A DNA stretch of 32,000 nt, taken from contig CAZIPU010000001.1 of the NCBI GenBank assembly GCA_964541005.1, positions 4,493 through 36,492 on the forward strand, given 5' to 3'. The position numbers and the translations under genes were made by a program. The stretch is from an uncultured Syntrophales bacterium. GTDB lineage: Bacteria; Desulfobacterota; Syntrophia; Syntrophales; JAAYKM01. The notes below the pieces were generated by a model that was given only the letters and a program-made list of their open reading frames with translations, ran no database searches and was not told the DNA's origin. Positions 13,993-30,650 of the stretch are shown here, piece after piece. The number at the start of each line of letters is the position of its first letter. The first letter of the stretch is position 1.

Positions 13993-15338
13993 TCATATTG
14001 CTGATTTCCACCAATACCATGACGGATCCCTATCCGACTTATCCCATCGGTCTGGACTATGTCGCCCATGCCATTCCCCCCCACCACAAAGTCGTGATGG
14101 TCGACCTGAACGACCCGGGAGAGAATAAAACACTCGCAGGGATCCTTACTGAAGAGCACCCCGACCTTATTGGCCTGTCGATCCGGAATATCGACAATAC
14201 GGAAGCCGTGAATGTGAAAAGCTTCTCCGAAGGCATGTGCGATCTGATACGCCTCATTCGACGCCATACCAGGGCAAAGATCGTTCTTGGGGGAAGCGGG
14301 TTCACAATCCTGCCCGGTGAATGGATGCGCCTTCTTGACGCGGATTATGGCGTCATCGGGGAAGGGGAACGCCTGCCCCTTTTGCTGGATGCCCTGGAAA
14401 GAAACGAGACGACTTCCGGTCTGCCGGGCATCATGACGAAAGAGGATCCCGTGATTTTCCCGGAACCCTGGACGGGCACATTCCATCGCGGGCCTTTTTT
14501 CTCCCGGGCCTATACGTCTTTTTACCTGAAAAAGGGGGGCATGCTCAACCTGCAGACCAAACGGGGTTGCCCCTTCAAATGTATCTATTGTACTTACCCT
14601 CATATCGAGGGGAAAACGTTCCGTTTTGTACCTCCCGATGAAGCGGCTGAAACAGCGCGGATGCTCCAGGACGCCGGCGCGCGCTACCTCTACATGACCG
14701 ATTCGACCTTCAACGGAAATTACGAGCATAGCCTGGCCGTTGCCGAAGCTTTCAAGAAAGCGGGCGTTTCCATCCCCTGGGGGGGCTTCTTCACCCCGAC
14801 CCGACCCCCTGCCGATTATTACCGTATCCTTGCGGAGGCGGGACTCCGGCATGTGGAATTCGGAACGGAGGCCCTGAATAATCCCATGCTGGCGGCATAC
14901 CGGAAACCGTTCAATCTCGAAGATGTCCGGATGGCCCATCGCTTTGCTCTGGAGGCGGGTCTTCATATCGCCCATTACCTCATGCTGGGCGGCCCCGGAG
15001 AAAGCGAGGCCACCCTTCAGGAAACACTTGAAAATTCTAATGATCTGGTGAAGGCTGTCTACTTCATGTTCAGCGGAATACGGATCTATCCGCACACGGA
15101 CCTGTACGACCTGGCCTTGCGGGAGGAACAGATCCAACCGGGCACGAATTTACTGAAGCCCACGTTTTACTGGTCCCCGGGCCTAAACCGACGGAGAGCC
15201 ATGACGCTGATCACGAATCATGCGGAGGGACGAAGCAACTGGCTTGTCGGCTCCGGGGCGGAAAAAACATCCAGGATTCTTTCACGGCTTTACGCCCGGG
15301 GTCACGTGGGCCCCCTTTGGGAGCACATGATCCGATGA
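13989..15338 (+). CDS. B12-binding-domain radical SAM enzyme (lipid-cluster type)
   Basis: Track ORF 13767..15338. I place the start at TTG 13989 (TTGA overlap with the desaturase stop), giving (M)IILLISTNTMTDPYPTYPIGLDYVAHAI. Further motifs: IVLGGSGFT and LNLQTKRGCPFKCIYCTYP (CxxxCxxC, about nt 14568-14591). Confidence 0.85.
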   Translation: MIILLISTNTMTDPYPTYPIGLDYVAHAIPPHHKVVMVDLNDPGENKTLAGILTEEHPDLIGLSIRNIDNTEAVNVKSFSEGMCDLIRLIRRHTRAKIVLGGSGFTILPGEWMRLLDADYGVIGEGERLPLLLDALERNETTSGLPGIMTKEDPVIFPEPWTGTFHRGPFFSRAYTSFYLKKGGMLNLQTKRGCPFKCIYCTYPHIEGKTFRFVPPDEAAETARMLQDAGARYLYMTDSTFNGNYEHSLAVAEAFKKAGVSIPWGGFFTPTRPPADYYRILAEAGLRHVEFGTEALNNPMLAAYRKPFNLEDVRMAHRFALEAGLHIAHYLMLGGPGESEATLQETLENSNDLVKAVYFMFSGIRIYPHTDLYDLALREEQIQPGTNLLKPTFYWSPGLNRRRAMTLITNHAEGRSNWLVGSGAEKTSRILSRLYARGHVGPLWEHMIR

Positions 15339-16670: not shown

Positions 16671-16755
16671 AAGGTGGAATAAAAGGACTTGAATGACCGG
16701 AAGGTCTTTTATAGATTCAAAGTGCAGTCATTTTAACGAGGAGGAATGGATACCC

Positions 16756-17016
16756 GTGAGTGCGGAAAACAAGGCCCTGATCATTCGCGTCGCCGAGATC
16801 GTCATTACCGAATTGAAGTTGCAGGACATTACGCCCGATACATTTGATCCCGATCTCGATCTTGTGGATGAACTGGGGGTGGACAGCATGGATCTGGCTA
16901 CGGTGGTCCTGGTTCTGCAGGACGAATATGGGATCACCATCGACGAGGACGACTATCCGAAATTGAGAAACATCCGCCTGATCGCAGAATATGTCGAACA
17001 GAAGCAGCGGGCGTAA
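16756..17016 (+). CDS. Acyl carrier protein (ACP-3)
   Basis: Track ORF 16693..17016. LVDELGVDSMDLATVVLVLQDEYG. I favour GTG 16756 (GAGGAGGA about 10 nt upstream), giving an 86-aa ACP. ATG 16693 is possible. Confidence 0.8.
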   Translation: MSAENKALIIRVAEIVITELKLQDITPDTFDPDLDLVDELGVDSMDLATVVLVLQDEYGITIDEDDYPKLRNIRLIAEYVEQKQRA

Positions 17017-18127
17017 TGATAAAACATTCGTGAGTACGACAGACGCCATAACCCTCCCAGGCGAGGAGAACGGGAAAAGAAAATGGAAGTTTTCAGAACT
17101 TCTGGCCGATCCGGAGGTGTCTTCACGATGGGAGAAGGTGCGTAAGTATTTCTTTCTCCGGGAATCGACGTATGACATGACGAATCGCTGCAACATTCGC
17201 TGCGACGGCTGTTATTACTATGAAGGGGAAAAACAGTTTGCCGTCGACAGCCGTGATCCCGAAGCGTGGCGCAAACTGATGCAGGACGAGAAATTCAGGG
17301 GGATCACCTATGTCGTTCTGGCCGGCGCGGAGCCTTCCCTGGTTCCGGAACTGCTTGAGGTCTGCTTCCGGGAAATGCCTCTGGGCAGCATCGCCACCAA
17401 CGGTTACGTCCGGATTCCCGAGAGCGTAGGTTACCGGATCCATATTTCCGTCTGGGGTAATGATGAAACGAGTGCCCGCGTCCGGGGTGCCAAAAACCTC
17501 CTGAAACGGCAGATCGAGAATTACGCCGGCGATTCCCGGGCCGTTTTTGTCTACACCTTCACCCGGGATAACATTGACGAAGTTTACGAGGTCATGGAAA
17601 CGATCGCTTCCCGGGATTGCCGGATGACCTTCAACATGTTTTCCTCCCCCGTAGGCTATACGGGAGGCCTTCGGCACGATACGGCATCGCTGCTCCGGGC
17701 CAGGCAAACGATGATGGATATCCTGACAAGGTACCCGGAGAACATCCTGTTTTCGCCTTATAACGTGGTGGCCCATACGGAGCCATATGGTCTCCATACC
17801 CTCTATGGGTGTTCTTACCCGAGGATGAACGGTTCCACCGATATCGGCCTGGGCCGATCCTTCCGCCAGTACCGGTCGGATCTTTCCTGGGATCGAAGCG
17901 TGGCCTGCTGCGTACCCGATACGGACTGCGAAGACTGCCGGCACTATGCTTCCGGCAGTGCCGTGGTGACGGCCCGCCTCTACCGCCATGTGACCGATCC
18001 GGAAACATTCCGTTCCTGGCTGGACTATGTGGATACCTATCTGGCCGTCTGGGTAATGGGTTACGATAAGGGAGAAAACCTCTGCCGTACATTGATCGAA
18101 CCGCCCGGGAAACCGGACTCAATTTGA
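16991..18127 (+). CDS. Radical SAM enzyme, no B12 domain, C-terminal Cys-rich motif (paralog A)
   Basis: 378 aa. STYDMTNRCNIRCDGCYYY (CxxxCxxC, about nt 17189-17212), VVLAGAEPSL, C-terminal VACCVPDTDCEDCRHY. The start could be ATG 16991 (overlapping ACP-3) or GTG 17030. Confidence 0.85.
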   Translation: MSNRSSGRNDKTFVSTTDAITLPGEENGKRKWKFSELLADPEVSSRWEKVRKYFFLRESTYDMTNRCNIRCDGCYYYEGEKQFAVDSRDPEAWRKLMQDEKFRGITYVVLAGAEPSLVPELLEVCFREMPLGSIATNGYVRIPESVGYRIHISVWGNDETSARVRGAKNLLKRQIENYAGDSRAVFVYTFTRDNIDEVYEVMETIASRDCRMTFNMFSSPVGYTGGLRHDTASLLRARQTMMDILTRYPENILFSPYNVVAHTEPYGLHTLYGCSYPRMNGSTDIGLGRSFRQYRSDLSWDRSVACCVPDTDCEDCRHYASGSAVVTARLYRHVTDPETFRSWLDYVDTYLAVWVMGYDKGENLCRTLIEPPGKPDSI

Positions 18128-18185: not shown

Positions 18186-19184
18186 ATGAAAACGGTCAGT
18201 TCCTTACTTGATGAAGCCTGGCATGAGCGCTACCGGAAAATCGCCAGCCTGAATATCCGCAGTTCCATCTACGATGTGACCAACCGCTGTAACCTGCGCT
18301 GCAAGGGGTGTTTCTTCTTTTCCTCCAATGAGCACGAAGCCGCTCAGGAGGAGATGGATATAAACAAGTGGTATGACTTTATCGGCCGGGAGAAGGCGCG
18401 GGGAGTCAACCTGGCCATCCTGATCGGCGGTGAACCGACCCTGTACCTGGACCGGGTTGAAGCCTTTTATCGGCAGCTTCCCACGTACTGCGCCACCAAC
18501 GGGCAGATCAAAATCCCCCGCGACCGCTTCCCTGACATGATGGTGGGCATCTCCCTGTGGGGGGACGAGGAAGACGAGAAAACCCTCCGGGGGAAAGACA
18601 CGTTCGCCGTTTCCCGGCGACATTACGAAGGTGACCCCCACACCTACTATCTTTACACGATCACGGCAAAACAGGTCGGACGCATCGAATCGGTCGTCCG
18701 TAAAATAGCCGATGCGGGTCTTAAGGTCCATTTCCAGCTTCTGACGAACGATGAACAGGTGGACGGATTCTCCTGGAGCGAGGACAAGCTGCGCGACATT
18801 CGAAGTGAAATGGATGAAATGCTTGACCGCTATCCCCGGACGGTTGTTTCCTGCCGGTATTATCACGAAATCATCACCACGGGGAAAATGATGGGACGGC
18901 CTTTCGGCTGGAACGAGTGCCCCTCCGTGACGGAACAACTGGATACGCGGAATCCGCAACCCAAAAGACTCATCCGGTTCATCCGCTGGGCTTCCGATCT
19001 GAAGACCATGCACCGGTGCTGCACCTCCGAAACCCGGGACTGTTCGACCTGCAAGGACGGGGCGGCCCACATGAGCTGGGTCATGGTCAACAAGAGGGAT
19101 CATCTGCGTTCGACCCAAGACATCCAGAACTGGATCGAAGTCTACGAAATGTTTGCCAAACTGTACCGTTTTATCCCCTGGTAG
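18186..19184 (+). CDS. Radical SAM enzyme, no B12 domain, C-terminal Cys-rich motif (paralog B)
   Basis: 332 aa. SIYDVTNRCNLRCKGCFFF (about nt 18288-18311), ILIGGEPTL, C-terminal HRCCTSETRDCSTCKDG. Alignable by eye with the preceding gene along its length. Confidence 0.85.
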   Translation: MKTVSSLLDEAWHERYRKIASLNIRSSIYDVTNRCNLRCKGCFFFSSNEHEAAQEEMDINKWYDFIGREKARGVNLAILIGGEPTLYLDRVEAFYRQLPTYCATNGQIKIPRDRFPDMMVGISLWGDEEDEKTLRGKDTFAVSRRHYEGDPHTYYLYTITAKQVGRIESVVRKIADAGLKVHFQLLTNDEQVDGFSWSEDKLRDIRSEMDEMLDRYPRTVVSCRYYHEIITTGKMMGRPFGWNECPSVTEQLDTRNPQPKRLIRFIRWASDLKTMHRCCTSETRDCSTCKDGAAHMSWVMVNKRDHLRSTQDIQNWIEVYEMFAKLYRFIPW

Positions 19185-19193
19185 CCTCCCCTC

Positions 19194-20468
19194 ATGAGCG
19201 CTGCGGCAAGGATGGGAACGGGGCGAAAAAGGCCTGTCATACTCGGCTACGATGCCGTATCTCCCCTGGGGTTGGATCTGGCAGAGCAGTGGGAACGTGC
19301 ATCGAGGGGCGAAAGCGGAATAGGCCCCCTGACCCGTTTTCCCCTCCGGGACGGATTCCCGGTGAGAATCGCCGGGGAGGTGAAGGAGATCGACACGGGA
19401 GCCTATCCCTTTTTAGCCGCCCGGGATATGGTGCAGTGGACGTCGCCTCTGTTTAAGTACGCCATGCTGGTGGTTAACCGGGCCCTGGCGAAAAGCGGGA
19501 TCGAGATTACCCCCGCCATATCGCCCCGGGTGGCCATTACCTTCAGTTCCGCCATCGGCGGCCTTGACGCGGTTTTGAAGGCGGACCGGCTTCTTGTTTC
19601 CGGAGGGAAACTGCCCCATCCCTTCACCAATCCGAATTCCTGCATCAACATGGTGGGGGGAAAGGTATCGATCATGACCGGGGCGACGGGACCGATTACG
19701 TCAACCATCACCGCCTGCGCCACGGGGAGCACTTCCATGATCATGGGGGGGCTTCTGATCGACCAGGGGATGGCCGATGTCGTCATTTGCGGCGCCGTGG
19801 ATTTCCCCCTCGTCGAGCCCATCGTGGGAGGATTCGCCACGATGAACGGGGCCTACCGGCCGAAAGAAGGCCAGCCGGAGGAAGCGCCGGAAAGGGCCAG
19901 CCGGCCCTTTTCGCAGAACAGGCGCGGGTTTGTGGTCTCCGAGGGAGCAGGGTGTGTCATCATTGCCGGACGTGATTTCGCCGCGTCCCATGGTTTACAG
20001 TTTGACCTGGAAATGGCAGGATGGGCCATGACCTCCGACGCCCATCATTTTGTGGCGCCGAATCTCCAGACGGTTAGGCGCTGCATCTCCGAAAGTCTTG
20101 CCGACGCGGGTCTTCAGGTGTCGGAGATCAATGCGATCAACGCCCACGGCACGTCGACCAAAATCGGCGACAAAATCGAATGGGAGGCCCTGCGTGATGT
20201 TTTTGGCAGCCGCATTCCTCCCGTATCGGCCAACAAGTCCCAGACGGGGCATGCCATGGGGGCTTCTTCCGCCATTGAGTTAATTCTGGCCATGGAAGGA
20301 ATGAAGCGGGAGAGAGTTCTGCCGACGATCAATTACCGGCCGGACCCGGAGATACCCCTCGACTGCGTTCCCGAAGGGGCGCGGAAGCTGGAGCAGGAAT
20401 ACGTTCTGAAAAACGCGTTCGGATTTGGCGGCTGCAACGCCTGCCTGGTGTTGCGCAGGACCGGTTGA
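19194..20468 (+). CDS. Beta-ketoacyl-ACP synthase, KAS I/II type (KS-2)
   Basis: 424 aa. ITACATGSTSMIMG (Cys), INAHGTSTKIGD (His), NKSQTGHAMGASSAIE (Lys/His), NAFGFGGCNACLVL. Confidence 0.9.
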   Translation: MSAAARMGTGRKRPVILGYDAVSPLGLDLAEQWERASRGESGIGPLTRFPLRDGFPVRIAGEVKEIDTGAYPFLAARDMVQWTSPLFKYAMLVVNRALAKSGIEITPAISPRVAITFSSAIGGLDAVLKADRLLVSGGKLPHPFTNPNSCINMVGGKVSIMTGATGPITSTITACATGSTSMIMGGLLIDQGMADVVICGAVDFPLVEPIVGGFATMNGAYRPKEGQPEEAPERASRPFSQNRRGFVVSEGAGCVIIAGRDFAASHGLQFDLEMAGWAMTSDAHHFVAPNLQTVRRCISESLADAGLQVSEINAINAHGTSTKIGDKIEWEALRDVFGSRIPPVSANKSQTGHAMGASSAIELILAMEGMKRERVLPTINYRPDPEIPLDCVPEGARKLEQEYVLKNAFGFGGCNACLVLRRTG

Positions 20469-20502
20469 CCCATCATCGGAAAAGGGATCATACAATCGAA
20501 CT

Positions 20503-21768
20503 ATGAAGGCACCCAAGAACAGACGGGTTTTCGTTATCGGCTACGGCGCGGCCACGCCCCTGGGAAGGACTTTTTCCACGACCTGGGAGCGTGCGGTGAA
20601 AGCGGAGGCCGGTTTCCGCACGGTTACCCGCTGCCATGTCAAAACCCTGAGCCACGTCGTGGGTGAAATACCGGATTGGGATCCGCTGCACCTGGGCCTG
20701 GCCGATGAAAAGGAAGTCTATAACTGGAATGCGGCCTTTGTCATTCTGACGATGGCGGTCTGCCGGGAAGCGCTGGAACATGCGGGATTGATCATGGACA
20801 ACGGCGTCGCCCCGAAAACCGCCTGCCTGATCGGCTCCGCCATCAACGGCACCGACGCCTTCCGGTGCGCCGTGGAAAACCTGCGGGACAAGGGGCCCCT
20901 CAAGGTCAGTCCCTACCTGCTCCCCAACATCTGCGCCAATCTGCCTGCCGGTAAAGCCGGCATGGAACTGGGATTCACGGGACCTGTTTTTTCACCCCAG
21001 GGGGCGTGCGCATCCGCGAACTACGCCCTGGCCCTGGGCGCCCGGATGATCCGCGACGGCGACTGCGACTTTGCCCTTGCCGGGGGAGTCGATATGCCGA
21101 TCATTCCGGAGATCATTCACGGTTTCGCCAATATGAACGCGACCATCAAGATCCACCCCTACGACCGGGCCCATGACGATCCTTCACAGGCCTCCCGGCC
21201 CTTCAGCGTGGACCGGAAGGGCTTTGTCGTGGCCGAGGGAGCAGGGATTCTGGTACTGGCCGCCGAAGAGACATTGAAAACCCACGGGCTGCGACCCAGA
21301 GCCGAGGTCATGGGGATCGGCTGGAGTTCCGACGCACACCATTTCACACGGCCGAACAAGGTTACGGTCATCCGCGCCATCAGGAACGCGATCGATGACG
21401 CGGGTCTTTCCGTAGAAGATATCGGTTACATCAATGCCCACGGAACTTCCACCATGGCCGGTGACAGCACGGAGATCGATTGTCTGCAAACCGTTTTCGG
21501 TGACCGCCTGGAAAAGATCCCGATTTCATCGAACAAGTCTCAGATCGGCCATTCCCTGGGTGCCGCCGCGGCGGTTGAAAACGCCCTGACCATTGAGGGC
21601 ATGCAAAGGGGAATCATCCTGCCGACGGTCAATTACCTGGCTGACCCCGCTTTCAACGGTCTGGATTTTGTTCCGAACGAAGCCCGCCGGCAACATCATG
21701 AAATCGCCCTGTCGAATGCCTTCGGCTTCGGCGGAACCAACTGCTGCGTCGTTTTCCGGGGAGTCTAG
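20503..21768 (+). CDS. Beta-ketoacyl-ACP synthase, KAS I/II type (KS-3)
   Basis: Track ORF 20425..21768. I place the start at ATG 20503 (MKAPKNRRVFVIGYGAATPLG). PQGACASANYALALG (Cys), INAHGTSTMAGD (His), NKSQIGHSLGAAAAVE (His), NAFGFGGTNCCVVF. Confidence 0.9.
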   Translation: MKAPKNRRVFVIGYGAATPLGRTFSTTWERAVKAEAGFRTVTRCHVKTLSHVVGEIPDWDPLHLGLADEKEVYNWNAAFVILTMAVCREALEHAGLIMDNGVAPKTACLIGSAINGTDAFRCAVENLRDKGPLKVSPYLLPNICANLPAGKAGMELGFTGPVFSPQGACASANYALALGARMIRDGDCDFALAGGVDMPIIPEIIHGFANMNATIKIHPYDRAHDDPSQASRPFSVDRKGFVVAEGAGILVLAAEETLKTHGLRPRAEVMGIGWSSDAHHFTRPNKVTVIRAIRNAIDDAGLSVEDIGYINAHGTSTMAGDSTEIDCLQTVFGDRLEKIPISSNKSQIGHSLGAAAAVENALTIEGMQRGIILPTVNYLADPAFNGLDFVPNEARRQHHEIALSNAFGFGGTNCCVVFRGV

Positions 21769-22248
21769 ATGAAACCGAAACCGTTCAGGCCTGAGCTGCT
21801 CTACAAGAATTCCTGTTATGTCCGGGATCTTGAAACGGGATTTGTCTGGCACCGCTGTTCCCAGCGGACCCTGTACGCGGATACGGACCGCTCCGCCGTG
21901 GTCTACCACGCCAACTACCTGCGTTATTTCGAGTTCGGCCGGGCCTCTCTCATGCGGGACGCGGCCTATCCCTACCGGGAAATCGAGGAAAGCGGCTATG
22001 TCTATCCCATTATCGAACTGGGAATCACCTTCTGCGAGCCCCTGCGGTATGATGACCCCATGTTTGTCCACACCCGCCCGGCGGAGATCGAGCGGGTGAA
22101 ACTTCGATTTGACTACACGATCACCCATGCGGAATCGGGAGCGATTGTCTGTAAGGGATTCACAAGGCACTGCGCCTTAAATGCCCAGGGAAGACCCGTG
22201 GCAATCGATCCGAAAACGGTACACCTATGGAAAACATTTCCGGAGTAG
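21769..22248 (+). CDS. 4HBT/YbgC-type hot-dog acyl thioesterase (APE ApeK-like)
   Basis: 159 aa. YADTDRSAVVYHANYLRYFEFGR is the 4HBT catalytic Asp region. The ATG abuts the TAG of KS-3. Confidence 0.85.
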   Translation: MKPKPFRPELLYKNSCYVRDLETGFVWHRCSQRTLYADTDRSAVVYHANYLRYFEFGRASLMRDAAYPYREIEESGYVYPIIELGITFCEPLRYDDPMFVHTRPAEIERVKLRFDYTITHAESGAIVCKGFTRHCALNAQGRPVAIDPKTVHLWKTFPE

Positions 22249-22415
22249 ATTGGAAACAAGAATGCAAAAGGCGGAAGCAGGAAGGTGAAGGGGATGAGGC
22301 AGGTGAGAGAAGGGAAAGGATGTCGGCTGAAAGTTTCGAGACTTGATTGTCCGGCAAAAGACGCTTTAATTTGTGCTGTCAAAAGGAAAGAGCATTCGGG
22401 GGGATTGGAACCGAC

Positions 22416-22682
22416 ATGACACGTGAGGAAATCATTGATCACATCCTTCAGATCTTCCGGAAGGAATTCGAGATCGAAAACCCGGGGCTGGATGACAATC
22501 TTCGGGAAGAATACGAATTTGACAGTATCGATGCCGTGGAGTTGCTCCTCCAGATCGAAAAGATGCTGGGTTCCGAACTGACCCAGGAGGAAAAAAAGCA
22601 GGCCATGGAGATTCGGACCATCAACCAGGTCTGTGACTATATCGAGGGCCTCGCTCGTGCGAGGCAGGGTGTTTCAAGGTAA
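22416..22682 (+). CDS. Acyl carrier protein (ACP-4)
   Basis: Track ORF 22347..22682. I place the start at ATG 22416 (MTREEIIDHILQIF...), GGGGGA about 10 nt upstream. EYEFDSIDAVELLLQIEKMLG. Confidence 0.85.
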   Translation: MTREEIIDHILQIFRKEFEIENPGLDDNLREEYEFDSIDAVELLLQIEKMLGSELTQEEKKQAMEIRTINQVCDYIEGLARARQGVSR

Positions 22683-22757
22683 ATTGACGGCGGGATCCCC
22701 CCCTGCTCCACTTCGGGGAGGAATACGATCCCGCCGGTTCTGAATAGCGGACGTTCC

Positions 22758-23999
22758 ATGGAAAGAAGAGTTGTCATTACGGCGTGCTCCGCCATCACCC
22801 CCATCGGGCGGACCAAGGCGGAGATGCTCCACTGCCTGGCAAACGGCATCTCGGGAGTCAGACCCCTGAAAGAGGACGGCCTGTTGTCTTCTTTCATTCA
22901 TTCGAAGGTTTTCGGCACCGTCGATTATCCGATAACCTACGACTTCAGGCGTTCGTTCCGGAAGACGATGGGACCCGTGGCCTACTATGCCTGCCAGGTG
23001 GCGAAGGAAACCCTCGAAAGCTCGGGGCTCGATCAGAACTTTATCACCTCCGGCCGCCTGGGCGTCGCCTTCGGATCGACCCACGGCAGCCCCACGGTGC
23101 AGCGGGAAATATACAAGACCTTTTTCGGCGGCACCCAGAGTGACGTGAGGTCCATCGGCGCCGTCGATTACCTGAAATCCATGGTCCACACCACGGCGGT
23201 CAACATCACGAAGATGTTCGGCATCACGGGACGGGTCATTTCATCTTCCACGGCCTGCACGACGAGCAGCCAGTCCATCGGTTTCGGCTACGAGATGATC
23301 AAGTACGGCATGCAGGACGCCATGCTCTGCGGCGGTGCCGACGAATACGATACGACGACCGTCGCCGTTTTCGATAACCTCCTTGCCTGTTCGACGGCCT
23401 TCAACGACACGCCGGAGCGGACCCCCCGCCCGTTCGATGTGCAGCGGGACGGCCTGGTGGTGGGCGAAGGCGCCGGGGCGGTGCTCCTGGAAGAATACGA
23501 GCATGCCCGGAGAAGGGGCGCCGGGATCATGGGGGAGATCATCGGTTTTTCCTGCAACAACAACGGCGGCGACCTGATTCTGCCCAATCTTCATGGCATC
23601 ACCGAAACGATCCGGATCGGCCTGCGGGATGCGGGCATATCCGCCGGCGATGTCGATTTCATCAGCGCCCACGCCACGGGGACTAAAATGGGAGACGTCA
23701 TTGAGGCCCAGGCGATCCACAATGTTTACGGCGATCGTCCGCCCGTTATCGGTTTGAAGAGTTACATGGGCCACACCATGGGATCCTGCGGGGCCATCGA
23801 AACGATTATCCTGCTCCACCTGATGCGGGAAGGCTTTATCGTGCCGACCCTCAACTTAACGGAAGTCGACGAACGTTGCGCCATGATCCGTCACAGCCGC
23901 GAGGTGAAGGATTATCCGGTCCGGATCGCTGCGGTCCAGAATTTCGCCTTTGGCGGTGTGAACACGAACTTGTTCATTAGAAAAATAACCCAAGAGTGA
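22758..23999 (+). CDS. Beta-ketoacyl-ACP synthase, KAS I/II type (KS-4)
   Basis: 413 aa. RRVVITACSAITPIG, SSSTACTTSSQSIG (Cys), ISAHATGTKMGD (His), LKSYMGHTMGSCGAIE (His), NFAFGGVNTNLFI. Confidence 0.9.
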   Translation: MERRVVITACSAITPIGRTKAEMLHCLANGISGVRPLKEDGLLSSFIHSKVFGTVDYPITYDFRRSFRKTMGPVAYYACQVAKETLESSGLDQNFITSGRLGVAFGSTHGSPTVQREIYKTFFGGTQSDVRSIGAVDYLKSMVHTTAVNITKMFGITGRVISSSTACTTSSQSIGFGYEMIKYGMQDAMLCGGADEYDTTTVAVFDNLLACSTAFNDTPERTPRPFDVQRDGLVVGEGAGAVLLEEYEHARRRGAGIMGEIIGFSCNNNGGDLILPNLHGITETIRIGLRDAGISAGDVDFISAHATGTKMGDVIEAQAIHNVYGDRPPVIGLKSYMGHTMGSCGAIETIILLHLMREGFIVPTLNLTEVDERCAMIRHSREVKDYPVRIAAVQNFAFGGVNTNLFIRKITQE

Positions 24000-24017: not shown

Positions 24018-24779
24018 ATGGTGAAAATCATGAATACCTTTATGGATTTTACCATTACGACAATCCTGTGGACATACTATATCGCCGGTTTTATCCTCGT
24101 CTTTTCCCCTTTTTATTTGTTCTCTTTTTTTCGCCGGGATAAAAAGGAAGCCGGCTTCCAGAAATTAAATCACATCTTCTTTAATAGTTTCTTCTCCCTT
24201 CTTCGAATCCTCGTTCCCAGGGTGACCTGGCGGGTGTCCGACGAGGTCCGCGCCATCCGATCCTCCGTCATCATTGCAAATCATCTTTCCTTTCTCGACC
24301 CGATCCTGTTCGTTTCCCTGTTTCCCCGGCAGAAGACCGTTGTCAAGAAAGATTATTTCCGCGTCCCCGTTTTCGGTTGGATCCTCAAAACATCCGGCTA
24401 TATTCCTGCCTTCACGGGAGATTCCGGAGCGGAGATTCTCCTTGAACAGGTAGAAAGAATGAAAGCCTACCTGGCGGAAGGGGGAAATCTGTTCATGTTC
24501 CCCGAGGGAACCCGCAGCCGCGACGGAAGGATCGGCTCCTTCGACCGGGGTGCCTTCCGCATCGCAAAGTTCTGCGATGTCCCCATCCGCGTCCTCGTGA
24601 TCCGCAATACCGGCCGGCTTTATCCCCCGGGGCGCATCCTCTTCAATACCTGCGAGCGTTTCACCATTTCCGTTGAAGCGGGGGGAACCCTGATGCCCGA
24701 TTACAAGGAGGAGACGATCTCGCTTTCCGCCGTCATGGCGGAGGCGCGAAAGCTGATGGAAGAGAGGACCAACCCGTGA
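24018..24779 (+). CDS. 1-acyl-sn-glycerol-3-phosphate acyltransferase family (PlsC-like LPLAT)
   Basis: 253 aa. N-terminal TM helix, IIANHLSFLDPILF (HX4D), FMFPEGTRSRDGRI (block III). Confidence 0.85.
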   Translation: MVKIMNTFMDFTITTILWTYYIAGFILVFSPFYLFSFFRRDKKEAGFQKLNHIFFNSFFSLLRILVPRVTWRVSDEVRAIRSSVIIANHLSFLDPILFVSLFPRQKTVVKKDYFRVPVFGWILKTSGYIPAFTGDSGAEILLEQVERMKAYLAEGGNLFMFPEGTRSRDGRIGSFDRGAFRIAKFCDVPIRVLVIRNTGRLYPPGRILFNTCERFTISVEAGGTLMPDYKEETISLSAVMAEARKLMEERTNP

Positions 24780-26308
24780 TACAGACGCCTCCCCGTTTGG
24801 AACAGGAAATGGACGGCGCATGGATTCGTTATCCCCGGACCCTTTCCGTCTCGGCCTACCTCTGGGACCACCATTTCATGGGCAAAACGATTTTCCCCGC
24901 CGTCGAAATTCTCCAGGGCCTCGCCGCCAGCGTGCTGGATCACAGACCGGGAACAAAGGTAACGTCCTTACGGGGAGCTTCCTTCGACCGGTTTCTGGAA
25001 CTCGCTGAAAACGATCGTGAACATACCGTATTCCACGATCTGAAAGCGGACGGAAAAGGCCTGGTGTCCGCACGGCTGGTAACCGTTTCTCCGTCCGGGA
25101 AAGCAGGCATCCTGCGGGAAAAGGTCCATGCCGCGGTCGATTTTACGGCACCGGTGAAGGACGACGCGGAATTTCCCATGGATCTGGCGGCGTCAGTGGA
25201 AGGAATCGGTTACCGGATCCCTGCGGAGCAACTCTACCGGAAACTCATTCCTTTCGGCCCCGCCTACCGGAACCTTCAAGGTGATGTGATCCTGACGGAA
25301 AACGGCGGGGTGGCACAGGTCCGGGCTGCGGAATACCCGGCTCCCACGGTGCCCCTGGGTTCGACCTTTCCCTTCGACGGAATCATGCATATCGCCTGTG
25401 CCTGGAGTCAACGTTTTCACGGAATTGTCGCTTTTCCCGTCGGCTTCGACGAAAGGATCGTTCCGATCCCGACCATTACGGGAGAAACCTATTTCTGCCG
25501 GGTTTTGCCCGTTTCCGTCATGAAAGAAGAACTGACTTTCGACATGGCGATTTACGATCCGGAAGGAAGGATAAGGGAATTCATCCGGGGCTTGAAGATG
25601 AAGGACGTTTCGGGAGGACGCGTCAGGCCGCCCGGATGGGTCCGGTTCGACGGCACCGATTCCCTGGCCACGATCCGGAAGCACTGCGAGGCGCTCTGTG
25701 TCATCGAGGAGACGGCCCTCGCCGGTTTTGCCGCCGATGCCCTGACGGCCGGAGAGAGGGCCCGTTTCGACCGGATGGGGGTTCGCAGGAGGAAAAGCTA
25801 CCTGATGGGACGCCTGGTCCTTAAAACCCTGGCGCGAAAACTGGCGGGACGGGACCGGCAAACCCCGTCATCGGCGATCCACACCATGATGGAGGACGGC
25901 ATCAGGCCGTTCTGCCCCGATTTGGCCGGCCGGGGTCCTGTTTTTTGTTCCCTTTCCCACGACCGGCGCTTCGCCGTGGCCGCCGGGGGGGCGGAACCGA
26001 TGGGGATCGATGTGGAAGTCCTCTCCGGACGGGCCCTGAAGGCGAGGCACCTCTACATGGGAGAAGCGGAGTCAAACCTGGCCGACCGGTCTTCCCTGGG
26101 CGTCCTGGCCGCAGCGTTGCGGGTCTGGTCCATCAAGGAAGGGGTGACGAAGGTCCTCAATATGCCCATCGGAGAAGCCTGGAAAAGGGTCAGGGTCCTG
26201 GATATCGGGTTTCACGAGAGCCGCCTGACCGTGGACGTCGAACGTTTTACGGCATTCCACGATACGGTGGACGATCATGTATTTACCCTGGTGAAGAGGG
26301 AATCATGA
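24776..26308 (+). CDS. Fusion: PKS-type double-hot-dog dehydratase + Sfp-type 4'-phosphopantetheinyl transferase
   Basis: 510 aa, GTG start in a GTGA overlap with the PlsC-like stop. N-part: LWDHHFMGKTIFPAVEIL (HxxxGxxxxP) and FPFDGIMHIACAW (DxxxH/Q). C-part: RKSYLMGRLVLK, PMGIDVEVL, VWSIKEGVTKVL (W/F-S-x-K-E), the PPTase motifs. Confidence 0.75.
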   Translation: MIQTPPRLEQEMDGAWIRYPRTLSVSAYLWDHHFMGKTIFPAVEILQGLAASVLDHRPGTKVTSLRGASFDRFLELAENDREHTVFHDLKADGKGLVSARLVTVSPSGKAGILREKVHAAVDFTAPVKDDAEFPMDLAASVEGIGYRIPAEQLYRKLIPFGPAYRNLQGDVILTENGGVAQVRAAEYPAPTVPLGSTFPFDGIMHIACAWSQRFHGIVAFPVGFDERIVPIPTITGETYFCRVLPVSVMKEELTFDMAIYDPEGRIREFIRGLKMKDVSGGRVRPPGWVRFDGTDSLATIRKHCEALCVIEETALAGFAADALTAGERARFDRMGVRRRKSYLMGRLVLKTLARKLAGRDRQTPSSAIHTMMEDGIRPFCPDLAGRGPVFCSLSHDRRFAVAAGGAEPMGIDVEVLSGRALKARHLYMGEAESNLADRSSLGVLAAALRVWSIKEGVTKVLNMPIGEAWKRVRVLDIGFHESRLTVDVERFTAFHDTVDDHVFTLVKRES

Positions 26309-26342
26309 CATCCGGAGTGAAACAGGAAAAGGGAAGGCAGGG

Positions 26343-26924
26343 ATGATCCCCTTTGTCGTCACCATGGCCGGGGCCTACCTGGCGGGCTCCGTAAACTTTG
26401 CCATTATACTGTTCGCCTCCCTGGGGAAAGAGGACCCCAGGTCCCGCTTCAGCGGTAACGCCGGAGTGACCAACGTCCGGCGCCAGGCGGGGCTCGCCTG
26501 GGCTGTCCTGGTCCTTTTGCTCGATTTGATCCGGGCGCTGGGCGTTTCCTTTATCGCCCTCTATTTCCTGCCGAAAGAGATGGTGCCCTGGGTGGGCCTG
26601 GCCCTGGTGCTCGGCAACCGCTTTCCCTGCTTCCACGGTTTCCGGGGGGGGAAGGGAGTGGCCGCGTATCTCGGTTTTACCATCCCCGTCGCCCCTTATG
26701 CGGCAGTCCTGTCCGCCCTTGTCTGGGTGGGCATTTACGGAATCGCCCGCAGGCCCTTTATTGCCTCCTTCGGTATGGTCGCCGTCCTTGCAGCAGGCAC
26801 GGCCACTGTTTTCGGATATGATGCAACGGCAGCAACGGGCACCGTGGCGACGGCGCTTTTGATTTATTTCAACCACCGGGAGAACATGAAGGAACTTTTT
26901 GGGAAAAAATCAGGAAGGACCTGA
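26343..26924 (+). CDS. plsY: PlsY-family acyl-phosphate:glycerol-3-phosphate acyltransferase (divergent copy)
   Basis: 193 aa polytopic membrane protein. FSGNAGVTNVRR (compare canonical GSGNxGATN), LGNRFPCFHGFRGGKGVAAYLG (compare GHxFPxF..GGKGVAT), C-terminal YFNHRENMKELF. Confidence 0.8.
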   Translation: MIPFVVTMAGAYLAGSVNFAIILFASLGKEDPRSRFSGNAGVTNVRRQAGLAWAVLVLLLDLIRALGVSFIALYFLPKEMVPWVGLALVLGNRFPCFHGFRGGKGVAAYLGFTIPVAPYAAVLSALVWVGIYGIARRPFIASFGMVAVLAAGTATVFGYDATAATGTVATALLIYFNHRENMKELFGKKSGRT

Positions 26925-27177: not shown

Positions 27178-28056
27178 TTGGAAAAGAATATCCTGGTCAT
27201 CTATTACAGCCAGACGGGACAACTGAAGCAGATTGTGGATTCTCTGCTTTCGCCCCTTGCCGCCAATTCCATGTTTTCCATCGATTACCTGGAAATCCGG
27301 CCGGCGGTGGCCTACCCTTTTCCCTGGATCCGGAACGCTTTTCTGGATGTTTTTCCCGAATCCGTTCTGGAAGCGCCGATCGGCTTGAAGCCGGTCGAGG
27401 CTAAATATCGCGGCGCGTACGATTTGATCATCCTGGCCTTTCAGCCCTGGTACCTGTCGCCGTCTCTGCCCATATCGGCATTTCTGAAAAGTCCGGAAGC
27501 GGCCGGGATTCTGAAAGGACAACGGATCGTAACCGTCATCGGGGCGCGAAACATGTGGATTAAGTCCCTTGAATGCGTCAAGGAAAGGATAGAATTCCTC
27601 GGGGGAACCCTCGCCGGCAACATCGCCTTGACGGACCGGGCACTTAATCTGGTCAGCGTCGTAACGATTGTTTACTGGATGTTCCGGGGAAAGAAGGACC
27701 GCTGCCTGGGTGTCTTTCCGAAACCGGGGGTATCCGATGCGGATATCCATGCCGCCGCCCGCTTCGGGAAGGTTTTAGAAAAAGCCCTGATCAATGACCG
27801 GACGGATCGGGTCGGGGAAGAATTGGCCAAGCTCGGCGCGGCGGAGATAAATGATTCGTTGGCGAGACTGGAGAATCGTGCTAAGAGGATCTTTAAAATG
27901 TGGGCGAATTTGATCACAAAGCATTCTAAGATCAGGCGGTTATTGCTGAATCTTTTTTTTATCGAGCTGATTTTGGGCCTTGTCATCTTGTCCCCCTTAT
28001 ATTCTCTTTTCGGTATCATACTAAAACCTTTCAGGATAAAAACGGCACGGGCATAG
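27178..28056 (+). CDS. darA: DarA-like protein (flavodoxin-like N-domain; dialkylresorcinol pathway partner of DarB)
   Basis: 292 aa, TTG start. N-terminus (M)EKNILVIYYSQTGQLKQIVDSL is flavodoxin-fold-like and matches what I recall of DarA N-termini. C-terminal hydrophobic helix LLLNLFFIELILGLVILSPLY. The stop abuts the DarB-like ATG (TAGATG). The assignment rests on memory of the family plus synteny. Confidence 0.55.
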   Translation: MEKNILVIYYSQTGQLKQIVDSLLSPLAANSMFSIDYLEIRPAVAYPFPWIRNAFLDVFPESVLEAPIGLKPVEAKYRGAYDLIILAFQPWYLSPSLPISAFLKSPEAAGILKGQRIVTVIGARNMWIKSLECVKERIEFLGGTLAGNIALTDRALNLVSVVTIVYWMFRGKKDRCLGVFPKPGVSDADIHAAARFGKVLEKALINDRTDRVGEELAKLGAAEINDSLARLENRAKRIFKMWANLITKHSKIRRLLLNLFFIELILGLVILSPLYSLFGIILKPFRIKTARA

Positions 28057-29199
28057 ATGGAGAATCAGGTCTATATTACGAAATTAGCGAAGTTCTTACC
28101 GAACGAACCGGTTTCCAATGAGGGGATGGAGGACATCCTGGGCAGGATAAACGGCCGGCCATCCAAAATCCGAACCCTCGTTTTGAAAAGCAACGGCATC
28201 CGAACCCGTTACTACGCCATCGATGACCGGGGGCGTTTCACCCACACCAATGCGGAACTGACGGCCAATGCCATCCGTTCCCTGATGGATTCGTCTCTGA
28301 AGATCTCAGATGTGGAACTTCTGTGCTGCGGCACCTCCATTCCCGACCAGATTCTACCCTCCCATGCAGCCATGGTTCAGGGCTGCCTCGGTGCACCGCC
28401 GTTCGAAATCGTTTCCACGGCCGGCGCCTGCTGTTGCGGGATTCATGCCCTCAAGTACGGCATGCTTTCGATCATGGGCGGCAATTCTTCCAACGCGGTC
28501 TGCGCCGCATCCGAACTGGTTTCGCCGTTGCTGATGTCCCGCCATTACGAGAATGAACTGGCCGGCCTCCAGCGGTTGAAACGGCGGCCCATCATCGCAT
28601 TTGAAAAGGATTTCCTGCGGTGGATGCTCTCCGATGGCGCCGGCGCCGTCCTGCTGGAGAATAAACCGAACCGCCGGGATGGCCTGTCTTTAAGGATCGA
28701 TTCGATCGATACCTGTTCCTTCGCCGGAGAAGTCGCCGCCTGCATGTACGCCGGAAGCAGCCGGAACGGAGGAGGGGAACTGGTCAGCTGGAAAAATCAT
28801 TCCCCCGAGGAATGGCTGGAGAATTCCACCTTTGCCATCAAGCAGGATGTCAAGCTGCTGGATAAACACATCGTCAAGCTCGGCACGAGGAAGCTGGCCG
28901 AAACCCTGAAAAAACGGGGCGTCAGTTCCGGAGACATCTCTTTCCTGCTGCCCCATATTTCATCCGAGCATTTCCGCAAACCCCTGGACCGCGAAATGAA
29001 TGAACAGGGGATTCCGATTCCCCAGGAGCGGTGGTTCACCAATCTTGCCACGGTGGGCAACATCGGCAGCGCCTCGATCTACCTGATGATGGAGGAACTG
29101 TTCCACTCCGGCAAACTCGACCGGGACATGAAGATTCTGGCCCTCGTGCCGGAAAGTTCCCGGTTCAGTTACGCCTTCATGCTGATGACGGTCTGCTGA
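28057..29199 (+). CDS. darB: KAS III-like condensing enzyme of the DarB type (head-to-head condensing ketosynthase)
   Basis: 380 aa. VYITKLAKFLPNEPVSNEGMEDILGRINGRPS is a DarB-like N-terminus as I recall it. Cys-His-Asn contexts: TAGACCCGIHALKYG, LPHISSEHF, VGNIGSASIYL. It differs clearly from the FabH-like gene at 2733. Confidence 0.65.
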   Translation: MENQVYITKLAKFLPNEPVSNEGMEDILGRINGRPSKIRTLVLKSNGIRTRYYAIDDRGRFTHTNAELTANAIRSLMDSSLKISDVELLCCGTSIPDQILPSHAAMVQGCLGAPPFEIVSTAGACCCGIHALKYGMLSIMGGNSSNAVCAASELVSPLLMSRHYENELAGLQRLKRRPIIAFEKDFLRWMLSDGAGAVLLENKPNRRDGLSLRIDSIDTCSFAGEVAACMYAGSSRNGGGELVSWKNHSPEEWLENSTFAIKQDVKLLDKHIVKLGTRKLAETLKKRGVSSGDISFLLPHISSEHFRKPLDREMNEQGIPIPQERWFTNLATVGNIGSASIYLMMEELFHSGKLDRDMKILALVPESSRFSYAFMLMTVC

Positions 29200-29200
29200 G

Positions 29201-29629
29201 ATGAAACGGGAACAGGTACCCCAGGACGACGACCGCCTCATGGAGGGGCGCACCCGCGACCTCTGCTATGCCGTTGACGAAAACGGCGAGTATGTCCAGG
29301 TGTTGAGCACGGGGTGGGAGCCCAAGAATGCCGCTCTCATGCAGGCATGGGAAGAGATCGGCGAGCAGGCGAAGGCAATTTATTCCCAGGTGCAGGCCGG
29401 ACAAGTCAGTCCGATCGCCTTTTTTATGGCCCAGTGCATGTTCGATATCAAGCTCCTGTCGGATTACACGGGTTTGCCGAAAAGAAAGGTCAAGGCGCAT
29501 CTGGAACCCGAGCAGTTCAGGCGACTCGACGCAGAGACCCTGAAAAGCTATGCCGAGGCGTTCAACATCACGGTCGAAGACCTGGTGAACTGCACCAATA
29601 CGGCCGATCCTTTTTCCGAGGAGAAATAA
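29201..29629 (+). CDS. Hypothetical protein (possible C-terminal helix-turn-helix)
   Basis: 142 aa, starting 1 nt after the DarB-like stop. Codon usage is like its neighbours. The segment IKLLSDYTGLPKRKVKAHLEPEQF looks HTH-like, but no motif is recognised with confidence. Confidence 0.5.
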   Translation: MKREQVPQDDDRLMEGRTRDLCYAVDENGEYVQVLSTGWEPKNAALMQAWEEIGEQAKAIYSQVQAGQVSPIAFFMAQCMFDIKLLSDYTGLPKRKVKAHLEPEQFRRLDAETLKSYAEAFNITVEDLVNCTNTADPFSEEK

Positions 29630-29648: not shown

Positions 29649-30650
29649 ATGATCGTTGATTTCAAACACAGGCAGGCCGCACACTGTGAAAACGGGGTAA
29701 CGTCGAATATATTCAGGTATTACGGTGTCGATCTATCCGAGGCCATGGCATTCGGAATCGGCTCGGGCCTCTTTTTCATTTACATGCCCTTTCTCAAGTA
29801 CAACGGGATTCCCGTCAGCTCGTTTCGACCCCTGCCCGGCATGATTTTCAAGCGGGCCACGCGCCTCCTCGGCATCAGGATTTACCGGAAGGCGTTCCGG
29901 GACAAGACGGCGTCCATGAAGGCTCTCGACGAGGCCCTCGACCGCCACATCCCGGTGGGGCTTCAGGTCGGCGTTTTTCACCTGGCCTACTTTCCCCGGC
30001 CCTACCGTTTCCATTTCAACGCCCACAATCTTGTGGTTCTGGGCAGGGAAAACGGCCGTTACGTTATCAGCGATCCCGTCATGGAAAGCCTGGAGTCTTT
30101 GAGCTATGACGAGTTGTTGCGGGTCCGCTGGGCCCGGGGCCTTTTCCAGCCGAAGGGGAAAATGTACTACCCTGTGAAGATCCCCGGGAAGATCGATCTG
30201 GCATCCGCCATTGTCAAGGGCATCCGGAAGAATTGCCGGGAAATGCTGAGCATTCCCATCCCATTTCTGGGTGTCCGGGGAATCCGCTACCTGGCCCGGG
30301 ACATCCGGCGGTGGCCGGCGAAACTGGGCGATAAAAAGGCCGCCCTGCACCTGGGGCAGTTCATCCGGATGCAGGAGGAAATCGGGACCGGCGGCGCCGG
30401 ATTCCGGTTCATTTATGCCGCCTTCCTCCAGGAGGCATCGAAAATATTGAACAAACCCCGGCTCCAGGAGCTGTCGGAGAACATGACCGACTGCGGCGAC
30501 CGATGGCGGGAATTTGCCGTCATGGCGGCCCGGATCATCAAGAACCGCAGCGGCGAGGGAGAGTCCTACGAGGCCATGTCCGCCATTCTTCTGGAAATCG
30601 CGGACCGGGAACAGGCCATCTTTAAGGAATTAAGGAAAGCCGTTACATGA
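29649..30650 (+). CDS. BtrH-N/DUF4872-like protein (putative ACP-dependent acyl/aminoacyl transferase or cysteine hydrolase fold)
   Basis: 333 aa. FKHRQAAHCENGVTSNIFRYYGVDLSEAMAFGIGSGLFFIY matches the BtrH N-terminal domain pattern (conserved HCE...G...SE.M.FG.GSG) as I recall it. Confidence 0.6.
   Translation: MIVDFKHRQAAHCENGVTSNIFRYYGVDLSEAMAFGIGSGLFFIYMPFLKYNGIPVSSFRPLPGMIFKRATRLLGIRIYRKAFRDKTASMKALDEALDRHIPVGLQVGVFHLAYFPRPYRFHFNAHNLVVLGRENGRYVISDPVMESLESLSYDELLRVRWARGLFQPKGKMYYPVKIPGKIDLASAIVKGIRKNCREMLSIPIPFLGVRGIRYLARDIRRWPAKLGDKKAALHLGQFIRMQEEIGTGGAGFRFIYAAFLQEASKILNKPRLQELSENMTDCGDRWREFAVMAARIIKNRSGEGESYEAMSAILLEIADREQAIFKELRKAVT

Follow-up and report, generated by a model that had tools for sequence, protein, structure and literature searches.

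Introduction

The closest described relatives of the locus discussed here are the PlsY acyltransferase of Aquifex (aaPlsY; structures 5xj5-5xj9, family PF02660), the FakA/FakB fatty-acid kinases of Firmicutes and the 'ladderane-type' extended type II fatty acid synthase (FAS) clusters of Kuenenia stuttgartiensis and Desulfotalea psychrophila. The locus itself is a PlsY-like gene that closes an operon within a long lipid cluster of an uncultured Syntrophales bacterium. It was studied in a stretch of 32,000 nucleotides, referred to as the window (GenBank assembly GCA_964541005.1, contig CAZIPU010000001.1, positions 4,493 to 36,492 of the forward strand). On balance, we cautiously favour the reading in which the gene product belongs to a separate PlsY clade and serves the cluster as its own glycerol-3-phosphate acyltransferase, supplied through a thioesterase, a kinase and an acyl-phosphate.

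In aaPlsY, the phosphate of glycerol-3-phosphate is clamped by Ser35, Arg45, Lys104 and Asn180, its 2-OH is contacted by Ser142 and His177, and Asn37 stabilises the oxyanion; the head group of the acyl-phosphate is held by the backbone of residues 104-107 and by the side chains of Thr41 and His92 (PMC5700162). His92 is conserved in 97.8% of 7,288 PlsY sequences, with Asn found in 0.5%, and the H92N variant of aaPlsY retains 6.9% of its activity with an unchanged Km for glycerol-3-phosphate; Gly34 was not among the residues tested in that work (PMC5700162). In Firmicutes, acyl-phosphate made by Fak is an established supply for PlsY, and this supply has been reconstituted (PMC9136124). Ladderane-type radical S-adenosylmethionine (SAM) fatty-acid clusters have been on record since 2009 (PMC2649909), and a 2026 review still lists their chemistry as unsolved. 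Rattray et al. (2009) mention no acyltransferase, PlsY or PlsC in their account of these clusters (PMC2649909).

The protein encoded in the window shares with aaPlsY the seven-helix fold, the glycerol-3-phosphate clamp, Asn37, Thr41 and the GGKGVA loop. Unlike aaPlsY, it has Asn in place of His92 and Phe, Arg, Cys and His at positions 34, 93, 96 and 98. It also differs from housekeeping PlsY in that its gene occurs in genomes with PlsB and without PlsX, and belongs there to the operon of a specialised lipid cluster. The supply route that we propose resembles the FakA/FakB-PlsY system of Firmicutes such as S. aureus and S. suis (PMC9136124), where a Dak2 kinase acts on an acid bound by DegV/FakB and the acyl-phosphate so formed passes to PlsY. 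It departs from that system in that the kinase and binder of carrier genomes form one polypeptide, and in that the proposed substrate would be endogenous, freed by a dedicated thioesterase. Finally, the cluster has in common with the ladderane-type clusters of PMC2649909 the TIGR04072 marker and CrtI-like, multiple FabF-like, acyl carrier protein (ACP) and radical SAM genes, to which it adds Dar (flexirubin-type), PlsC-like and PlsY-like genes.

Genomes and loci

The source genome (G000, in which the window is G000:C1:4493-36492) is a metagenome-assembled genome (MAG) of 2.28 Mb, 88.3% complete and with 6.9% contamination. Its same-genus and nearest named relatives likewise bear the label uncultured Syntrophales. 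Three sets of genomes were surveyed: an order sample of 61, comprising G000 and 60 genomes at ≥90% completeness; a phylum sample of 200; and an additional set of five carriers labelled outside Syntrophales. A carrier is a genome with a PlsY-like gene of the Asn92 clade described below, and the phylum sample divides into 7 carriers and 193 others; carrier species number 199 in all. The comparison of gene order drew on 80 species-level loci in public genomes, every one a MAG and none from a cultured organism. Locus L054 and G057:C6, the latter from a same-genus genome, are one and the same contig.

Residue conservation is given as alignment-based counts over 120 close homologs. The input of the PlsY tree came from a search of 1.84 billion representative proteins, and a quick tree was built with supports from the Shimodaira-Hasegawa-like approximate likelihood ratio test (SH-aLRT). 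The cut-offs applied, in bits, were 24.1 for PF02660, 137.2 for TIGR00023, 102.95 for TIGR00530, 360 for TIGR04072, 68.7 for TIGR00051, 70 for NF053536 and 300 for NF053550.

The PlsY-like protein and its clade

The PlsY-like protein passes the PF02660 cut-off and falls short of that of TIGR00023, which marks it as a member of the family and not as an equivalog. It aligns to aaPlsY (5xj5) at an E-value of 1.2e-24, and its motifs FSGNAGVTN (residues 36-44) and LGNRFP (residues 90-95) align without gaps to GSGNVGATN and LGHMYP. The six residues with which aaPlsY contacts glycerol-3-phosphate (Ser35, Arg45, Lys104, Asn180, Ser142 and His177) correspond to S37, R47, K104, N181, S142 and H178 of the window protein, and all six are invariant or nearly so among the homologs. 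Also retained are Asn37, Thr41 and the phosphate-hole loop GGKGVA (aaPlsY numbering); R183 and E189 of aaPlsY are not conserved.

An earlier note, made by a model from the letters of the window, had proposed that substitutions in this protein fall on conserved or substrate-binding positions. Alignment to the characterised enzyme bears this out for the second motif, where aaPlsY His92, a ligand of the phosphate of acyl-phosphate and nearly universal in the family, is replaced by Asn in the window protein and in 120/120 homologs. For the first motif it does not: the Phe that precedes SGN takes the place of aaPlsY Gly34, a position without an assigned function. Each of the altered residues is close to fixed among the 120 homologs (F36 in 118, N92 in 120, R93 in 118, C96 in 118 and H98 in 120), and the substitutions are therefore not sporadic drift. 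The same note had placed the product of the cluster in a glycerolipid, a suggestion with which the intact glycerol-3-phosphate site agrees.

An AlphaFold2 model of the protein (pLDDT 82.9, pTM 0.78) adopts the seven-transmembrane PlsY fold, and a Foldseek search with this model returned only PlsY structures (5xj5-5xj8) at E <0.001, with TM-scores of 0.80-0.82 and 34% identity.

In the tree, a group with Asn92 (46/52 rows) is split from the canonical group with His92 (68/69 rows) at an SH-aLRT support of 99. Asn92 is paired with His98 in 59/64 cluster representatives, as against 17/74 for His92, and it may stand in functionally for the missing histidine. The window protein belongs to a sub-clade of 37 rows (support 99) marked by Arg93, mostly Phe, Tyr or His at position 36 and often Cys96. 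The sister Asn92/His98 sub-clades have kept Gly36 and lie in ordinary gene neighbourhoods, and Cys96 is not present in them. A literature search found no description of the Asn92/His98 clade or of its link to the fused kinase described below.

One sister gene stands out by its neighbour. At L114:10001-12474 (GCA_030595125.1, JAUVDV010000014.1), the 3' end of an Asn92/His98 PlsY gene with Gly36 is overlapped by a gene for a 604-aa protein with Dak2, FakA_M and DegV domains, forming a two-gene unit of PlsY and single-chain kinase outside any lipid cluster. The idea that Asn92 alone signals a new acyl donor was rejected, since the sister proteins keep Gly36 and ordinary neighbourhoods and one of them is coupled to this FakA-DegV gene. 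Asn92 itself is therefore no argument against acyl-phosphate.

Association with the cluster

Across the 80 loci the dominant gene order is ACP, two radical SAM genes, two ketosynthase (KS) genes, thioesterase, dehydratase (DH) and PlsY, with PlsY last and the genes downstream of it variable. The PlsY-like gene is co-directional with and terminal in the same operon in most of these loci. It is a core member of the cluster, and the PlsC-like gene encoded two genes before it in the window is a variable accessory.

At the level of genomes, PF02660 is found in 22/61 genomes of the order sample, 21 of which carry the Asn92 clade type; 39/61 have no PlsY-family gene at all. TIGR04072 scores above its cut-off in 19/21 of these carriers, where the match and the PlsY-like gene are often 10-13 kb apart on one contig. 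Two genomes of one genus in the order sample (G024 and G058) have TIGR04072 above cut-off, no PlsY-family gene and no DegV. From this pattern it follows that the radical SAM cluster can exist without the pair of PlsY and kinase, and that the kinase tracks PlsY and not the TIGR04072 marker.

Two further genomes of the order sample and locus set deserve mention. Canonical His92 PlsY matches were seen in the order sample only in G055 (G055:C100:584-2016 and G055:C105:3518-4081); one copy adjoins a stand-alone DegV gene on a contig of 3.5 kb, the other contains a TGA in frame, and these matches may reflect contamination or recent transfer. The clade member at L024:1501-2019 (G045:C26) reads FSRNAG and GNRFSCFH, with Gly38 changed to Arg and Pro95 to Ser. 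As the kinase fusion and a TIGR04072 match are both missing from its genome, it may be a decaying PlsY-like copy.

Bulk phospholipid synthesis

The earlier note had left open whether this is the only plsY of the organism, oddly placed, or a specialised paralog, and had pointed out that no plsX is present. The profile search of G000 (88.3% complete) returned the PlsY-like gene as its only PF02660 match, and PlsX (PF02504) was found neither in the window nor in G000, nor in any of the 61 order genomes or the 5 carriers labelled outside Syntrophales. In G000 the PlsC-like gene is one of at least four PF01553 genes, so that at least three more are present. G000 also encodes a full-length PlsB-like protein of 852 aa (NF003441, 460 bits), and a PlsB-like protein (TIGR03703) is present in 54/61 order genomes. 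In the phylum sample, the Asn92 clade type occurs together with canonical PlsY and PlsX in three genomes, which belong to a single genus.

Judging from gene content, bulk phospholipid synthesis here runs through a PlsB-type enzyme. With PlsB present, PlsX absent and the PlsY family tracking the cluster, the window gene is therefore best described as an accessory, cluster-bound PlsY and not as the bulk glycerol-3-phosphate acyltransferase. Of the two possibilities raised earlier the specialised, cluster-tied gene is the one supported, even though it is the sole PF02660 gene of G000; the surveys of PlsB, PlsX and PlsY in G000 and the 61 order genomes led us to reject a role as sole housekeeping PlsY.

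The fatty-acid kinase

A candidate source of acyl-phosphate in carriers is a fusion of Dak2, FakA_M and DegV domains, encoded as one uninterrupted frame of about 570-690 aa, in which DegV takes the place of FakA_C. All four same-genus genomes encode it, and one same-genus copy is at L117:1608-3317. The domain scores of the same-genus protein are 56 bits for Dak2, 40 bits for FakA-like_M and 148 bits for DegV. Counted over related genomes that are not independent, the fusion occurs in 18/21 carriers versus 2/40 non-carriers of the order sample, and in 7/7 carriers versus 6/193 other genomes of the phylum sample. Four families of the order sample mix carriers that have both the PlsY-like gene and the kinase with genomes that have neither. 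DegV was found in 5/5 of the carriers labelled outside Syntrophales, three of which have it in frames of about 575 aa. In G065, a carrier labelled Desulfobacterales, the DegV domains (G065:C142:2903-3781 and G065:C466:2384-3256) lie in frames of 852-927 aa, compared with the usual length of about 575 aa.

In 4 of the 7 phylum-sample carriers the kinase gene shares a contig with the PlsY-like gene, at a distance of 10-20 kb. It lies within 10 kb in only 5/80 loci, in one of them 3.8 kb beyond PlsY.

Cluster layout and neighbouring genes

The cluster occupies a single strand, beginning near 2.7 kb and reaching the window's end (Table 1). It opens with genes for a family 2 glycosyltransferase (GT2), an MMPL protein with a methyltransferase domain, an LpxL-like protein, an ACP, a ketosynthase-chain length factor (KS-CLF) and a CrtI-like protein. 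These are followed by the B12 radical SAM protein, NodB, a FabA-like protein, an ACP, two radical SAM proteins and two ketosynthases, and then by the YbgC-type thioesterase, an ACP, a third ketosynthase, the PlsC-like protein, a dehydratase fused to a phosphopantetheinyl transferase (DH-PPTase) and the PlsY-like protein. After a gap of 250 bp 3' of the PlsY-like gene come DarA, DarB, DarG and DarH and an ABC transporter.

Table 1. Predicted features of the window and the matches on which their assignment rests (positions as numbered in the window).
Feature	Position	Strand	Matches and remarks
B12-binding radical SAM protein	13767-15338		TIGR04072 391.5 bits (cut-off 360)
ACP, first gene of the conserved module	16693..17016	+	PF00550 40.9 bits; in 29 related loci, same order 5' of PlsY-like gene
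Two paralogous radical SAM genes	16991-18127, 18186-19184	+	PF04055; 5' of PlsY-like gene, same strand, in ~40 related loci
Two FabF-like ketosynthase genes	19194-20468, 20425-21768	+	PF00109 and PF02801; 5' of PlsY-like gene in 64-66 related loci
YbgC/FadM-type hot-dog thioesterase	21769..22248	+	PF13279 52 bits; TIGR00051 78.9 bits (cut-off 68.7); proposed releaser of free acid
ACP and third ketosynthase	22347-22682, 22758-23999	+	PF00550, PF00109, PF02801
PlsC-like lysophospholipid acyltransferase (LPLAT)	24018..24779	+	253 aa; PF01553 75.2 bits; TIGR00530 68.7 bits (below 102.95)
Polyketide synthase (PKS)-type double-hot-dog dehydratase fused to PPTase	24776..26308	+	510 aa; ACPS 24 bits, PKS_DH_N 16 bits (weak matches)
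PlsY-family acyltransferase, Asn92/His98 clade	26343..26924	+	193 aa; PF02660 120.3 bits; TIGR00023 87.2 bits (below 137.2)
DarA-like and DarB genes	27178..29199	+	DarB NF005293 544.6 bits
DarG-family protein	29201-29629	+	142 aa; NF053536 147.6 bits (cut-off 70)
BtrH-related acyltransferase DarH (BtrH_N/DUF4872)	29649-30650	+	NF053550 470 bits (cut-off 300)

Of the related loci, 62 contain the thioesterase; its median distance upstream of the PlsY-like gene is 1.4 kb, and in 61 of them the two share a strand. The DH is encoded upstream of the PlsY-like gene in 61 loci, mostly as a stand-alone protein of about 284 aa whose gene directly adjoins it; the fused DH-PPTase form also occurs in G020 (L118), at 53% identity. 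In the window, the GTG start of the fusion overlaps the stop codon of the PlsC-like gene (GTGA), and a GGGAAGG ribosome-binding site precedes the ATG of the PlsY-like gene. The DH was also considered as a hidden acyl-phosphate-forming enzyme, an idea that was dropped on account of its normal PKS dehydratase motifs, with H32 within HxxxGxxxxP and D201 within DxxxH.

Both the PlsC-family and the PlsY-family gene that the earlier note placed on either side of the DH-PPTase gene were recovered by profile, with every motif that it quoted. The PlsC-like protein resembles T. maritima PlsC (5kym), to which it aligns over its full length (E 8e-15), in its N-terminal hydrophobic segment and in its motifs NHLSFLD (HX4D, residues 88-94) and FPEGTRS (the FPEGTR motif, residues 161-167). 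H89, D94 and FPEG/A-T/H-R are conserved in 18 open reading frames called in related loci. Unlike standard PlsC it scores below the TIGR00530 cut-off, is encoded after an ACP and a ketosynthase of its own and occurs in a minority of related clusters. The ACP and ketosynthase at 22347-23999 form with it an accessory sub-module, and this ACP-KS-PlsC order recurs in a subset of the loci; tblastn detected the PlsC-like gene within such a sub-module in only about 19 of 70 loci.

The DarG and DarH matches, together with DarA and DarB, indicate a flexirubin-type dialkylresorcinol set in the window. In L010 and other loci the PlsY-like gene is followed by genes for a 142-aa protein and a BtrH-type protein, so that DarG and DarH stand directly 3' of PlsY in some relatives. 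These relatives lack DarA and DarB, which in the window are inserted between. DarA and DarB adjoin the PlsY-like gene in only 5-8/80 loci and lie outside the conserved PlsY module.

Discussion

From the observed gene content, operon position, residue conservation, fold and genome-level co-occurrence, we infer a route whose catalytic steps, donor, acceptor and product are all predicted. The type II FAS/PKS and radical SAM module would build an unusual acyl chain on an ACP of its own, and the YbgC-type thioesterase, encoded two genes upstream of PlsY in the conserved operon, would release this chain, possibly modified by radical SAM chemistry, as a free acid. A single-chain kinase, consisting of the N-terminal and middle domains of FakA fused to a DegV/FakB binding domain and encoded elsewhere in carrier genomes, would convert the acid to an acyl-phosphate, with which the PlsY-like enzyme would acylate glycerol-3-phosphate at its 1-OH. 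In clusters that have the PlsC-like LPLAT, this enzyme would then acylate the sn-2 position, probably from the adjacent ACP. The expected product is a phosphatidic-acid-type precursor of a special membrane lipid. The retention of the phosphate-hole loop and Thr41, the kinase-coupled sister gene, the co-occurrence of kinase and PlsY-like gene and the thioesterase upstream together point to acyl-phosphate made from a released free acid as the donor.

Several observations weigh against this route. In G000 there is no DegV or Dak2 domain match, and the same-genus kinase used as a tblastn query gave no hit, so the route is incomplete in this assembly, which is 88.3% complete. Most of the link between kinase and PlsY-like gene is co-occurrence among related, non-independent genomes, with physical linkage in 5/80 loci. 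The 6.9% activity of the H92N variant of Aquifex PlsY makes efficient use of acyl-phosphate by an Asn92 enzyme an assumption, and residues 94-100 of the AlphaFold2 model have pLDDT <50, so that His98 and Cys96 are not placeable relative to the phosphate hole. Moreover, none of the 80 loci comes from a cultured carrier.

The rival explanations are, in order of weight, non-selective salvage, direct use of acyl-ACP, a housekeeping function and a different acceptor. The kinase and the PlsY-like enzyme could together serve the general salvage of free or exogenous fatty acids, as in Firmicutes, without selectivity for the product of the cluster. Such a system would fit a kinase gene that usually lies outside the cluster, sister Asn92/His98 enzymes in housekeeping-like neighbourhoods and acceptor and phosphate-hole residues of the ordinary kind. 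It would not lead one to expect a PlsY-like gene that closes the same operon co-directionally in most loci, that tracks the cluster marker in 19/21 carriers and whose sub-clade has residues of its own (F36, R93 and C96) not shared with the sister clades, and we regard salvage as unlikely. Donation of the acyl group directly from a cluster ACP or another thioester, as the earlier note had suggested, with the pair of Cys96 and His98 compensating for the loss of His92, is improbable. The absence of PlsX from G000 and the order genomes, the kinase not found in the G000 assembly and the replacement of an acyl-phosphate ligand beside a fixed C96 (118/120) and H98 (120/120) do favour it. However, the phosphate hole and Thr41 are kept, a sister gene is coupled to a kinase, the kinase fusion and the PlsY-like gene show strong co-occurrence, and 62 loci have a thioesterase gene two positions before PlsY; canonical His92 enzymes, too, often have His98 (17/74), Cys96 is absent from the sister Asn92 clades, and no member of the PlsY family is known to use thioesters (PMC5700162). 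On these grounds the suggestion was not upheld. Its boldest form is a long shot: the clade with Phe36, Asn92, Arg93, Cys96 and His98 would be the first of PlsY type to work without acyl-phosphate, passing a radical-SAM-modified chain from an ACP thioester through a Cys96-His98 acyl-enzyme to glycerol-3-phosphate, with the kinase serving salvage only.

That the gene is the organism's sole housekeeping PlsY, merely placed beside the cluster, is highly improbable. Its status as the only PF02660 match of G000 and its intact glycerol-3-phosphate residues are what one would expect of such a gene, but they are set against the PlsB-like proteins of G000 and 54/61 order genomes, the 39/61 genomes without a PlsY-family gene, the absence of PlsX from all 61, the score below the TIGR00023 equivalog cut-off and the coexistence of canonical PlsY and PlsX with the clade in one genus. 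Transfer to another acceptor, such as a dialkylresorcinol or a phosphorylated polyol made by neighbouring genes, is very unlikely: the DarA, DarB, DarG and DarH genes do lie immediately downstream in the window, and R183 and E189 of aaPlsY are not conserved, but the six residues that contact glycerol-3-phosphate are invariant or nearly so in the clade, the Dar genes accompany the PlsY-like gene in a minority of loci only, and the resorcinol probably has an acyltransferase of its own in DarH.

If the favoured route through thioesterase, kinase and acyl-phosphate is correct, the product of the cluster is predicted at sn-1 of a glycerophospholipid, with a free acid and an acyl-phosphate as the intermediates on the way there. 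A PlsY-type enzyme that closes the operon and a kinase that travels with it turn the question of the product into a targeted problem of lipidomics and enzymology. The clade itself, as a natural His92-to-Asn form of PlsY, offers a test ground for the proposed substrate-assisted mechanism. The acyl-phosphate route, so far described for the bulk lipids of organisms with PlsX and PlsY, would extend to a specialised lipid in anaerobes of the PlsB type.

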